Below are positions 1,792 through 9,736 of a stretch of DNA of 32,000 bases, one piece after another. Numbering within the stretch: the stretch's first letter is position 1; each line of letters starts with the position of its first letter. The position numbers and the translations under genes were made by a program. Source of the DNA: Promethearchaeia archaeon (GTDB lineage: Archaea > Asgardarchaeota > Lokiarchaeia > Sigyniarchaeales > SOKP01); assembly GCA_046497275.1 (NCBI GenBank), contig JAWOFX010000176.1:1822-33821 (forward strand), written 5' to 3'. Under the pieces are notes generated by a model, which saw only the letters and a list, made by a program, of their open reading frames with translations, was not told where the DNA came from and did not search any database.

Positions 1792-2598
1792 TTAACTCTT
1801 ACTATGATTTAGTTTTCTTTTGCATAATTCTTTTACAAAATATGTAGCAACCATCTCAGGAGTGGTTCCTGAGCCAAAGCCTGCATCATATCCTAATTCT
1901 TTTGCTAATTTATTTTCAATTCTTGCTCCACCGCAAATCAATATAATTCTATCTCTTAGACCCTCCGCCTCTAATAAATCAACTAAATTGGTTAAGTTTT
2001 CCACATGAATATTTTTTTCAGTTACCGTTTGAGAAACTAAGAGCACATCAGTATTTAGTTCTATAGCTTTTGCCGCAAATTTTTCATTGGAAACTTGGGC
2101 TCCCATATTATATGCTTCAATCATCTCATATCGTTCCAAACCATAATGGCCGGCATATCCTTTCATATTCATGATCGCATCAATACCAACTGTATGAGCA
2201 TCCGTTCCAGTAGATGCCCCTAAAACAATTATTTTTCTTCCTAAATGATTCTTGATATATTCATTAATTTCTTTGAAGGACATTACATCTGAATCAATAG
2301 AATCTATTTTAATCTTAGTATAATTAATAAAATGGTCAACTTCCCCATAAATAATAAAGAAAGTAAATCCTTTATCTAGTTTCTTATGATATGTAATCAG
2401 TGGATCTTGTATTCCCATTTTTATAGCTAAGATCTTAGCTGCTTCTAACGCTTTAACATCTTCTTGGAGTGGAAGAGTAAAACTAATTTGAACTTTTCCA
2501 TCATTCATAATATCTCCATAAGGTTTAACCCTCGTTAAATCCAAATTTGCCCTTAGATCTTTATTTTCTTTTAAATTAAAATTATTAGCCATATTCAT
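1792..2598 (-). CDS. kamE: D-lysine/L-beta-lysine 5,6-aminomutase beta subunit (AdoCbl- and PLP-binding)
   Basis: Base-off B12 motif DxHxxG in STGTDAHTVGIDAIMNMKGYAGHYGLE, which also carries the PLP lysine. N-terminal PYGD..NDGKVQISFTLP dimerisation domain, SQTVT and GGARI motifs. ATGA overlap with the kamD stop. Confidence 0.96.
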   Translation of the reverse strand: MNMANNFNLKENKDLRANLDLTRVKPYGDIMNDGKVQISFTLPLQEDVKALEAAKILAIKMGIQDPLITYHKKLDKGFTFFIIYGEVDHFINYTKIKIDSIDSDVMSFKEINEYIKNHLGRKIIVLGASTGTDAHTVGIDAIMNMKGYAGHYGLERYEMIEAYNMGAQVSNEKFAAKAIELNTDVLLVSQTVTEKNIHVENLTNLVDLLEAEGLRDRIILICGGARIENKLAKELGYDAGFGSGTTPEMVATYFVKELCKRKLNHSKS

Positions 2599-4181
2599 CC
2601 CTCATTAAACAATTCTCTTTTCATTAAATCTATAAATGGATTATAATAATTGGGATCTTTCTTAATTATTCCTTCAAAACCTTTTCCTCCCTCTAATTTT
2701 CTGCTAATCCCAGCAAAAATTCCATTTTCAATTGTTCTGAAAATACCGATTTTTTCAATTTTTTCTAATAATTCAAAAGCTCCATATAAAACATTCTCTG
2801 CCCTCTTTTGAATAATACCATCCTCCTTAAATGATATCTCTTCTCCAAATGACTTCATGTTATTGAAGATATACTGAGCATTTTCAATTGATAATGCTCT
2901 ATCAGAAAGAAAAGGCGTATGTATCGCTTCGGTTAGCATGCCAAGTAAATGGATTTTTTGATGGGTTAAAATTGTAATCATATTGAAAAGGGCATCTTGG
3001 ATATGTGCTTTATAAATATTACCTGTTTTGAACTTTGTAGGAGGCATATATTTAAGTGGGGCATTTGGAAAGATTTCTCTTGACATTTGAGCTTGTGCTA
3101 GTTCATATAGAAACCCATTTTCAATAGCTGGATCCATTTCAAAAGCATGTCCTAATCCCATCTGTTTTTCTTTCAAACCTGCAAGAAGAGCAAATTGTTC
3201 ATTAATAAATTGAGATGCTAATACTGTATGAGCATTTTCAAATGCATCAGAAGTTTTTAAATAGTTATCCTCTCCAGTATTTATAATGATTCCAGCATAA
3301 GCATTTAACATACGGGAAAAATGTTGATCAATTAAGGTTCTTTTCATATTAATATCTCGGAATAATATTCCGTATAAAGCATCATTAAGCATAACATCTA
3401 ATCGTTCAAGTGCTCCTATTGCCGCAATTTCAGGCATACATAATCCAGAACAATAATTAGTCAATCTAATATATCTTCCAATCTCTTCGCTAACCTCATC
3501 GAGAGCAGTTCTCATTAATCGAAAATTTTCCTGAGTTGCATAAGTTCCACCGAAACCTTCGGTAGTTGGACCATAAGGAACGTAATCCAAAAGACTTTGA
3601 GCTGTAGATCTAATTACTGCAATTATATCTGCTCCTTGTCTTGCAGCAGCTTGTGCTTGAACTATATCCTCATAAATGTTTCCAGTAGCTACAATCACAT
3701 ATAAATATGGTCCTTGTTTTTCTCCATATCTATGAATTAATTTATTCCGTTTTTTTTTATTATTCTTGATGATTCTTAATGTTTCTTTTGCTTTTTCCTC
3801 AACCACTTGTTTTATATCATTTATATTTTCGAATGGTAATTTAGTTATATTTAGTTCATTTTCAGAAATACGTTGTGCGATTTCTTGAAATGTGATGTTT
3901 TTTTGTATGACAGCATTTCCTAAGAATAAAGCTACTCCCTGACCTAAGTCTGAATTTTTTTTAATATGATCTACAATTATGTTTGATAAAGGGATATCAT
4001 ATTTATCTACTCCATCTATACCGAGTAATCTACAAATCGTTCTTTCAATCGTAGTAGTTGTATATTTATTTATTTTTTTCTGAGTATTTAGTGCTATATT
4101 TTTTGCTAAATTTCTAGCCCTATCTACTAAGGCGAAGTCTAAATTTAATTTACTTCTTCTGAATTTATTCTCTCTATCCAT
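2595..4181 (-). CDS. kamD: Lysine 5,6-aminomutase alpha subunit (TIM barrel)
   Basis: YVIVATGNIYED, IAVIRSTAQSLLDYVPYG, EGFGGTYATQENF, NYCSGLCMPE, INTGEDNY, KYMPPTKF and MLTEAIHTP. Adjacent to kamE. The lysine context favours KamD over ornithine aminomutase. Confidence 0.96.
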   Translation of the reverse strand: MDRENKFRRSKLNLDFALVDRARNLAKNIALNTQKKINKYTTTTIERTICRLLGIDGVDKYDIPLSNIIVDHIKKNSDLGQGVALFLGNAVIQKNITFQEIAQRISENELNITKLPFENINDIKQVVEEKAKETLRIIKNNKKKRNKLIHRYGEKQGPYLYVIVATGNIYEDIVQAQAAARQGADIIAVIRSTAQSLLDYVPYGPTTEGFGGTYATQENFRLMRTALDEVSEEIGRYIRLTNYCSGLCMPEIAAIGALERLDVMLNDALYGILFRDINMKRTLIDQHFSRMLNAYAGIIINTGEDNYLKTSDAFENAHTVLASQFINEQFALLAGLKEKQMGLGHAFEMDPAIENGFLYELAQAQMSREIFPNAPLKYMPPTKFKTGNIYKAHIQDALFNMITILTHQKIHLLGMLTEAIHTPFLSDRALSIENAQYIFNNMKSFGEEISFKEDGIIQKRAENVLYGAFELLEKIEKIGIFRTIENGIFAGISRKLEGGKGFEGIIKKDPNYYNPFIDLMKRELFNEG

Positions 4182-4225
4182 AATATATTCAATTCATTTT
4201 TTATTATTCTACTAATTAAGCTATT

Positions 4226-8509: not shown

Positions 8510-9343
8510 CTAATCTTTTTTATTAATTCCCAAAATTTTCCGAGCCTTTTGAGGTGAAGCAATTTTTCTACCCAAACTTTCGGAAATATTTACAAGTTTT
8601 TCCACTAAGCTTCCATTTGATTCAGCCAATTTCCCTTTAGAAATATATATATTATCTTCAAAACCAACCCTGGCATGTCCCCCCATTATTATAGACACTG
8701 TAGCCATATTGAATTCATATCTGCCAATCCCTGTAACAGTATAAGTAGCATCAATAGGTAAGGATTCTACAAGAAAGACTAAATCTCTTACTGTTGCGCT
8801 AATACCACCATTTACACCTAAAACCAAATTAAAATGCATTGGTAATTTTATAATTCCTTGCTTATGTAATTTCAACACCATATCAATCATTCCCTTGTCA
8901 AAACATTCTAATTCTGGTTTTATTCCTAATTTATTCATCTCTTTAGCAAAATAAATTATATCATTTTCTGTATTAATGAATATATCATCTCCTCCAAAAT
9001 TCATAGTTCCACAATCTAAGCTAGCCATTTCTGGAGGAGGATATAAATATATTGGTTGCAATCTCTCCTTATTATTCATTCCTATTGCACCACCTGTGGA
9101 GGGTTGAATAATCACATCGGGACATCTTTTCTTTATTTCTTTTATACAAACTTCAAATCTTTTCTTATTTTGTGTAGGGGTCCCATCATCATTTCTCACA
9201 TGTAAATGTATAATACTTGCCCCCGCTTTATAAGCTTTTTCTGCCTCTATTCCTATTTCTTCTATAGTATAAGGAATAGAAGGATTCTGTTCTTTAGATA
9301 CTTCCGCTCCACAAATTGCGGCTGTTATGATTAAATCTTCCAA
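8510..9343 (-). CDS. kce: 3-keto-5-aminohexanoate cleavage enzyme (BKACE family)
   Basis: IITAAICGAE, Zn-binding HLHVR, IQPSTGG, EMASLDCGTMNFG, KPELECFD and GHARVGFEDN. TTG start. Confidence 0.95.
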   Translation of the reverse strand: MEDLIITAAICGAEVSKEQNPSIPYTIEEIGIEAEKAYKAGASIIHLHVRNDDGTPTQNKKRFEVCIKEIKKRCPDVIIQPSTGGAIGMNNKERLQPIYLYPPPEMASLDCGTMNFGGDDIFINTENDIIYFAKEMNKLGIKPELECFDKGMIDMVLKLHKQGIIKLPMHFNLVLGVNGGISATVRDLVFLVESLPIDATYTVTGIGRYEFNMATVSIIMGGHARVGFEDNIYISKGKLAESNGSLVEKLVNISESLGRKIASPQKARKILGINKKD

Positions 9344-9355
9344 ATGATTCTCAAC

Positions 9356-9736
9356 TCATTTCCTTTGTTTTTCTTTTGGAACCACACAGGTTCCAGTTGC
9401 TCTGCAAACAATAAGAGGGTCCTTTAGTAGATCTGCAGCTGAATCATTAATGTCATTTCTTGTAGAAATAATTTTTCTCGCTTCAAATCTCATCTTTCTA
9501 GAAGTATTTCCAATTTTGATAATTTCTCCTTCCACCTCAATATAATCTCCCGCGTAAACTGGGGCAAGGAAATCTATATTATCATAAGCTCTAAATAAAC
9601 CTTCATCCCCATCATTTCTGATTAAGAGTTCAGTGGCTACATCTCCAAACAATTCTAAGATTCTTGCTCCGTCTATAAGGTTTCCTCCATAATGAGCATC
9701 ACTCTGGCTCATTCTCACTCGTAATATAGCCTTCAT
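9356..9736 (-). CDS. kal: 3-aminobutyryl-CoA ammonia-lyase (hotdog fold)
   Basis: [57 protein letters not shown]. Confidence 0.94.

Follow-up and report, generated by a model that had tools for sequence, protein, structure and literature searches.

A bacterial-type lysine fermentation cluster at a fixed, native locus in Loki-type Asgard archaea

How does an archaeon come to carry a set of genes that would ferment lysine in the bacterial manner, and how long has its lineage kept them? The question is raised by a stretch of 32,000 nucleotides (the window in what follows) from contig JAWOFX010000176.1 of the Promethearchaeia assembly GCA_046497275.1. Between positions 1792 and 9736, open reading frame (ORF) listing and profile searches find eight consecutive genes on the minus strand: kal, kce, a methyltransferase gene, kdd, kamA, kamB, kamD and kamE. 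Taking all the evidence jointly, we put a probability of about 0.85 on the cluster being a native and probably functional lysine operon of the 3,5-diaminohexanoate type, which was acquired once from bacteria and has since been inherited vertically. An earlier note on the same DNA had already recognized the pathway. It was right about the biology, but within the order the cluster is an old and common one that has been passed down vertically, and it had been described before. The residual novelty lies in two features: a lysine 5,6-aminomutase reactivase that lacks KamC, and an embedded gene resembling amine methyltransferases.

The identity of the genes is well defined. All seven pathway proteins exceed the curated cut-offs of their NCBIfam equivalog models (Table 1), and their catalytic motifs are intact. 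KamA keeps both the CxxxCxxC iron-sulfur motif, as CSMYCRHC, and the lysine for pyridoxal 5'-phosphate (PLP) in PGGGGK, and scores 695 bits against PDB 2A5H. When KamE is aligned to PDB 8T0V, the cobalamin ligand motif DxHxxG is found as DAHTVG and the PLP lysine in NMKGY. The zinc ligands of Kce, HLH and FEDN, are conserved as in PDB 2Y7D, and KamB contains a P-loop-like motif, NSGKTT. From kal to kamD the intergenic gaps measure 12, 10, 53, 171, 27 and 44 bp, while kamD and kamE overlap by 4 bp; the second and third of these gaps separate the methyltransferase gene from kce (10 bp) and from kdd (53 bp). A TATA-like ‘ctataaaa’ stands about 27–34 nt 5' of the kal ATG, and the spacer in front of kal is a probable archaeal promoter region. 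The earlier note had listed the seven pathway genes with intact motifs on one strand, which the equivalog cut-offs and structure alignments bear out; it missed the eighth ORF in the same interval, the methyltransferase, and the absence of KamC.

Table 1 Features of the lysine cluster and its flanks. Coordinates are positions in the window; pairs of numbers give the bit score and the curated cut-off of the NCBIfam equivalog model.
Feature	Position	Strand	Properties
kal, 3-aminobutyryl-CoA ammonia lyase	9356..9736	-	126 aa, hotdog/4HBT fold; NF052388 198 bits/160; Pfam 4HBT
kce	8510..9343	-	NF052387 431 bits/382; Pfam BKACE 341 bits; 257 bits vs PDB 2Y7D
Class I S-adenosylmethionine (SAM) methyltransferase, DesVI/TylM1-like	7795..8499	-	234 aa; Pfam Methyltransf_25/11
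kdd, L-erythro-3,5-diaminohexanoate dehydrogenase	6704..7741	-	345 aa; NF052381 271 bits/200
kamA, lysine 2,3-aminomutase (radical SAM, PLP)	5288..6532	-	414 aa; TIGR03820 623 bits/525; Pfam Radical_SAM and LAM_C
kamB, P-loop subunit of lysine 5,6-aminomutase reactivase	4226..5260	-	344 aa; NF052386 382 bits/210
kamD	2595..4181	-	NF052384 906 bits/600; Pfam Lys-AminoMut_A 889 bits, full profile
kamE	1792..2598	-	NF052385 384 bits/280; Pfam OAM_dimer and B12-binding; 382 bits vs PDB 8T0V
Spacer upstream of kal, AT-rich, probable archaeal promoter region	9737..9894	-	158 bp
532-aa coiled-coil flank gene, locus anchor	9895..11493	-	no Pfam/NCBIfam family; single-copy core gene of host family
MscS-type mechanosensitive channel, flank anchor on kamE side	687..1544	-	Pfam MS_channel_2nd

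What would these proteins do together? We infer the enzyme activities and the co-transcription of the genes from sequence, and the pathway proposed by the earlier note can be retained on the strength of family membership and motifs. KamA, a radical SAM and PLP enzyme, would convert L-lysine to β-lysine, from which KamDE, the two-subunit lysine 5,6-aminomutase that uses adenosylcobalamin and PLP, would make 3,5-diaminohexanoate, with KamB presumably keeping KamDE loaded with intact cofactor. Kdd would oxidize 3,5-diaminohexanoate to 3-keto-5-aminohexanoate, Kce would turn this and acetyl-CoA into acetoacetate and 3-aminobutyryl-CoA, and Kal would release ammonia from the latter to give crotonyl-CoA. 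Genes elsewhere in the genome could carry crotonyl-CoA and acetoacetate to butyrate and acetate, with a gain of ATP. For this downstream route contig C181 encodes an acyl-CoA dehydrogenase next to EtfB and EtfA, and there are three CoA_trans matches, all of these at the level of Pfam.

The same genes, in the same order and on one strand, make up the operon of Fusobacteriaceae and Clostridium (kal-kce-kdd-kamA-kamB-kamC-kamD-kamE), a correspondence that the earlier note had also drawn. Six of the enzymes are 56–78% identical to their bacterial counterparts and share their cofactor motifs; KamB reaches only 37–43%. Kal is 70–78% identical to clostridial proteins and 77% to that of another species of the window's genus (G004), Kdd 53–68% to bacterial proteins and 73% to that of G004, and KamD 63–72% to bacterial and 67–75% to other Asgard proteins. 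The window differs from the bacterial operon in that it lacks kamC, contains an archaeal-type methyltransferase gene and lies in an archaeal host and locus. It also lacks a lysine or B12 riboswitch; a search of the whole window against Rfam matched neither a riboswitch nor any other family.

Do these genes belong to an archaeon at all? The host is an Asgard archaeon (Promethearchaeota, Loki-type), in line with the earlier note. Its assembly (G000) comprises 3.85 Mb in 188 contigs at 30.4% GC and is estimated to be 98.9% complete with 4.4% contamination. It encodes the archaeal ribosomal protein S24e, five full-length eukaryote-type actins (160–444 bits) and an ESCRT-II EAP30 protein, the bacterial ribosomal protein L19 was not found in the genome, and the nearest relatives are labelled Promethearchaeota by NCBI. 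The bin does hold foreign DNA: a 4.3-kb contig, C106, contains a fragment of bacterial 16S rRNA, its first ~1000 nt (L001:1493-2469; RF00177, 972 bits). As C106 is a contaminant, the 16S of the bin is unsuitable for taxonomy, and the window's contig was checked directly.

The earlier note had itself raised the possibility that this contig is bacterial or chimeric, in which case it would have been wrongly placed in an Asgard bin. Besides the contamination estimate and the stray 16S fragment, the 63–72% identity of the cluster proteins to their counterparts in Clostridia and Fusobacteria speaks for such a reading. In tetranucleotide composition, however, the contig does not stand out from the bin, with a distance of 0.0074 to the bin mean compared to a median of 0.0077 for contigs of 20–50 kb, and the cluster sits in a setting that is Asgard throughout the host family. 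Only 158 bp upstream of kal lies the gene for a 532-aa protein, which occurs as a single copy in 110 of 134 genomes and all 13 genera of the family, including genomes without lysine genes, and which adjoins the cluster in most of the genomes that have it. The protein is 41–82% identical across genera and in the protein atlas matches unnamed archaeal clusters only. In G004 the order kal-kce-kdd-kamA-kamB-kamD-kamE stands beside the same gene, and the locus recurs in a closed genome of a different genus, G201, together with a short-chain dehydrogenase/reductase (SDR) gene beyond the 532-aa gene. Sister species show the empty site with identical flanks: in G002, of the same genus, the MscS and 532-aa genes are 162 bp apart with nothing between them, and G001, G005 and G006 retain the flanking genes while the cluster is missing. 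An archaeal-type methyltransferase embedded in the operon also argues against a foreign contig. The contig is native, and contamination or chimerism, ruled out by the synteny, is left with a vanishingly small probability.

How far does the cluster extend beyond this genome? Among 400 Asgard species genomes scanned, 85 encode KamD: 74 of the 134 genomes of one family of the window's order (f1), 10 of the 14 of a second family (f2), and the window's own genome. The 84 carriers among the 148 genomes of f1 and f2 include closed genomes, and f2 itself comprises closed genomes and metagenome-assembled genomes (MAGs) labelled Promethearchaeum by NCBI. The 251 genomes scanned from the 31 other Asgard families all lack KamD. 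A pattern scan of all species genomes, bacterial and archaeal, yielded at least 598 stretches that encode a relative. The 80 listed are the loci closest to Asgard KamD and span six bacterial phyla, with Bacillota, Bacteroidota, Fusobacteriota, Thermotogota and Rifleibacteriota among them, as well as Asgard MAGs.

A tree of KamD alone failed to resolve the backbone and drew G030 to a long bacterial branch. In its place, Kdd, KamA, KamD and KamE were concatenated (46 loci, 1538 columns) and analyzed under LG+C20 with posterior mean site frequencies (PMSF) and a careful search. The resulting tree is unrooted; support is given below as ultrafast bootstrap/SH-aLRT (Shimodaira–Hasegawa-like approximate likelihood ratio test). 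All 12 Asgard rows fall into one clade (100/99), inside which f1 (100/100) and the f2 core (100/99) separate in a mirror of host taxonomy, and the window groups with G004 (100/98). The stem of the Asgard clade measures only 0.076 substitutions per site and arises from a poorly resolved backbone of Clostridia. From the window the path to Alkalithermobacter is 0.82 long, shorter than many of those to f2 Asgard archaea, which measure 0.76–1.17. The mean distance between Asgard and bacterial sequences, 1.07, lies within the range found among bacteria (up to 1.31).

Given the short stem, these distances and a distribution that is narrow in archaea and broad in bacteria, one old transfer from bacteria is the best reading. 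The operon would have entered the common ancestor of f1 and f2 once, from Clostridia-like bacteria, and settled beside the family-core 532-aa gene, where it would have descended vertically at a fixed locus. Repeated losses would have followed; of the six further species that share the window's genus, four would have lost it. Within the archaeal host the operon would have been remodelled by the loss of KamC, the insertion of an archaeal methyltransferase gene and the use of either Kal or a Kat-type aminotransferase in the first slot. The earlier note's bacterial acquisition thereby stands as far as origin is concerned; it is not specific to this genome and predates the split of f1 and f2.

Could the operon nonetheless have reached this genome or genus recently, as the wording of the earlier note suggests? 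Its patchiness within the genus, where KamD is found in only G000 and G004 of seven species, and its high identity to bacterial sequences would suit such an event. But the window's copy is nested with G004, within f1 and within a single Asgard clade, each of these groupings with the strong support given above, and its chromosomal locus is common to other genera. Moreover, genus mates without the cluster keep its flanks, as deletion predicts. We regard a recent acquisition as extremely improbable.

The reverse scenario makes the pathway an ancestral archaeal trait, or one that dates back to the origin of the domains, which bacteria received from Asgard archaea or inherited in parallel. Asgard archaea and Bacteria form the two sides of one branch in the unrooted tree, and a root on that branch is formally possible. 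That branch is only 0.076 long, though, and the distances across it stay inside the bacterial range. A scan confined to Asgard genomes among the archaea found no KamD in the 31 other Asgard families (251 genomes), and six bacterial phyla are represented among the 80 loci listed. An archaeal origin therefore seems very unlikely, and a single old transfer from bacteria is preferred.

The pathway is on record for a cultured member of the same Asgard order. Supplementary Table 4 of Imachi et al. 2020 (PMC7015854) gives, under ‘Lysine degradation’, kamA, kamD, kamE, kdd, kce and kal of Promethearchaeum syntrophicum MK-D1 with their expression levels (DSAG12_00552-00557, 00568, 00569), and the legend to Figure 2 of that paper names acetoacetate and an aminobutyryl-CoA among the intermediates. 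This supplement was the only record retrieved when the literature on lysine fermentation, degradation or aminomutases in Asgard archaea or Lokiarchaea was searched; no main-text description was found. MK-D1 and the window share the same seven enzyme families, Kal among them. They differ in that MK-D1 keeps KamC (annotated as MutS2, DSAG12_00554), which the window lacks, and in that kce-kal are ten genes away from kdd in MK-D1, while the window's cluster is contiguous, with the methyltransferase gene between kce and kdd. A closed genome of the same genus as MK-D1 (G038) has the order kamE-kamD-kamC-kamB-kamA-kdd. By the earlier note's own standard, a cluster that is widespread, vertically inherited and already described would count against its reading, and this is largely what was found: 84 carriers among 148 genomes, a fixed locus and a published table (PMC7015854).

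Fermentation of lysine with the help of B12 and radical SAM chemistry thus appears to be a regular, though dispensable, part of an amino-acid-degrading lifestyle in Loki-type archaea. The locus also illustrates cleanly how a bacterial operon can be domesticated at a fixed archaeal site after what was, on our reading, a single acquisition: sister species show the empty site, an accessory ATPase has gone, an archaeal gene has been inserted, and the last enzyme is either Kal or of the Kat type. Models of Asgard syntrophy and gene flow gain useful background from this but are not altered by it, because the pathway had already been reconstructed for MK-D1.

Is the operon used? RNA libraries of two salt-lake studies contain 22–38% of the cluster's sampled words, and contigs assembled from them match parts of kamD, kamA, kdd, the methyltransferase gene, kce and kal at 99–100% identity, one of them bridging the junction of the methyltransferase gene and kce. 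These matches are compatible with transcription in situ. In several RNA runs coverage is nil or nearly so over parts of kamE, kamD and kamB, which is uninformative either way. Soil and hypersaline-lake runs contain small shares of the cluster's words, those in a hypersaline-lake DNA run being too few to count, and were not used to assign a habitat.

Contigs from the salt-lake RNA libraries also point to deletions, with window positions 1644-1653, 8915, 9824 and 10352 involved. Some join position 9824 to 1644, which yields an empty site; in four of four runs, 8915 is joined to 1653 with the same 24 intervening letters. On the evidence of these contigs, this suggests co-occurring strains in which either the whole cluster or the part from kamE through most of kce has been deleted.

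Several points weigh against a functional operon of single bacterial origin. The tree is unrooted and its bacterial backbone poorly resolved, the nearest neighbour of the Asgard clade, Clostridium neuense, being supported at only 75/95, and the bacterial sample consists of the 80 loci closest to Asgard KamD and is not a full one. With an unrooted tree and a sample biased toward Asgard-like sequences, donor lineage and direction of transfer are put forward here as probable. The RNA-library contigs are assemblies that give no strand and may stem from carried-over DNA or a near-identical strain, so that they do not prove transcription in situ. Neither a PduO- or CobA-type corrinoid adenosyltransferase nor CobS was found in the draft of 188 contigs, and KamC (NF052383) was found neither in the cluster nor anywhere else in the genome.

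How serious are the last two? A tblastn search of the assembly with a relative's CobA likewise found nothing. All five closed or high-quality relatives that carry the cluster have a CobA-type gene, and for this reason the missing adenosyltransferase is probably an assembly gap. One BtuF-like binding protein is encoded in the genome, and the corrinoid is presumably imported, as proposed for MK-D1.

KamC is a MutS-like ATPase and the partner of KamB in a two-part reactivase; in nearly all bacterial clusters its gene sits between kamB and kamD. It is an accessory feature and not a step of the pathway. Among the 134 f1 genomes, 74 of which have KamD, only two encode KamC, compared to 8 of the 14 f2 genomes; it has been lost from 72 of the 74 f1 genomes that carry KamD. 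Two candidates in the window's genome turned out to be halves of MutS1, on contigs C162 and C140. The 532-aa neighbour was considered as a displaced KamC and rejected, since BLASTP against a true KamC, also of 532 aa, returned E = 0.4 and no family matched.

The two MutS1 halves say something about the assembly. They lie at contig ends (C162:2-1303 and C140:10939-12159), with about 110 codons missing between them. As mutS1 is split across these ends, the two contigs are probably adjacent in the genome.

The second departure from the bacterial operon is the methyltransferase. Its closest solved relatives are DesVI and TylM1 (153 and 126 bits, both over the full length), which are N,N-dimethyltransferases of deoxythymidine diphosphate (dTDP)-aminosugars; the top PDB match, at 153 bits, is the N,N-dimethyltransferase 3BXO. 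Orthologues occur as single copies in 50 of the 134 f1 genomes, in at least 29 of them on the same contig and strand as KamD, and they sit between kce and kdd where examined. KamD is present in 43 of these 50 genomes and absent from seven, and no orthologue was found in genera that lack the cluster. Neither f2 nor G004 has the gene, and none of the 69 bacterial loci examined contains it. Wider relatives, at about 50% identity, are archaeal (DPANN, Bathyarchaeota, Heimdall-labelled and Methanofastidiosia MAGs), with one non-archaeal case, Roizmanbacteria of the candidate phyla radiation (CPR). The neighbourhoods of homologues on a Heimdall-labelled, a Nanoarchaeia-labelled and one further contig are not conserved and have no sugar-nucleotide or lysine genes nearby.

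Does this gene point to a different use of the whole cluster? In methanogens, the lysine 2,3-aminomutase AblA and its partner AblB form the pathway to the osmolyte N-epsilon-acetyl-β-lysine, and KamA of the window belongs to the same NCBIfam model, TIGR03820. The cluster might then serve not primarily catabolism but the making of a β-amino-acid product, for instance a compatible solute derived from β-lysine or N-methylated. The near-identical sequences in salt-lake RNA libraries and a DesVI/TylM1-like amine N-methyltransferase within the operon would agree with this. Against it, the cluster neither contains nor adjoins an AblB-type acetyltransferase gene: among the window's ORFs scanned none has an acetyltransferase domain, the AblB search being confined to the window. 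The window's kamA stands among catabolic genes, and Kdd, Kce and Kal, the enzymes committed to catabolism, are each encoded there by an intact gene, with little space between the genes. In addition, the methyltransferase is missing from G004, f2 and all bacterial clusters and is thus not essential. A primary role in solute synthesis is for these reasons highly unlikely, and lysine fermentation remains the preferred function.

Within a fermentation operon the methyltransferase gene, apparently co-transcribed with the cluster, may be either a passenger or an enzyme acting on a pathway amine, for which lysine, β-lysine, 3,5-diaminohexanoate or 3-aminobutyryl-CoA may come into question. If the latter is true, it would stand for an undescribed methylated branch or product of the pathway rather than a passenger gene. 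A joint f1 variant, in which KamB alone services the aminomutase and the embedded N-methyltransferase acts on such an amine, is unlikely as a whole.

The end of the pathway varies as well. Most f1 genomes have a class III aminotransferase of Kat-like type in the first slot instead of Kal, which occurs in only 27 of the order's 154 genomes and is there often arranged just as in the window. Clusters of the Kat type, for example that of the closed genome G201, occupy the same locus and share with the window the order 532-aa gene, first-slot gene, kce, methyltransferase, kdd, kamA, kamB, kamD and kamE; the difference lies in the first slot. A Kat-type lysine fermentation cluster is known from ‘Ca. 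Cloacimonas acidaminovorans’. A Kat-like aminotransferase gene in place of kal was also seen upstream of kce in the relatives L042, L044, L045, L048, L130, L132 and L133, some of whose clusters add a family III CoA-transferase, or a tetratricopeptide repeat (TPR) protein between kamA and kamB.

Beyond the 532-aa gene, positions 11761-24513 hold four short-chain dehydrogenase genes, a major facilitator superfamily (MFS) transporter and a glycoside hydrolase family 3 (GH3) glycosidase, together with a LuxE-like acyl-protein synthetase (17842-19035) and an 879-aa protein without family (15074-17713). This stretch may be a lipid- or acyl-modifying neighbourhood. Toward the end of the window, at 25566-31998, comes a gene for a 729-aa C25 (gingipain-type) peptidase and, after it, an open-ended ORF that exceeds 1275 aa and has no Pfam match.

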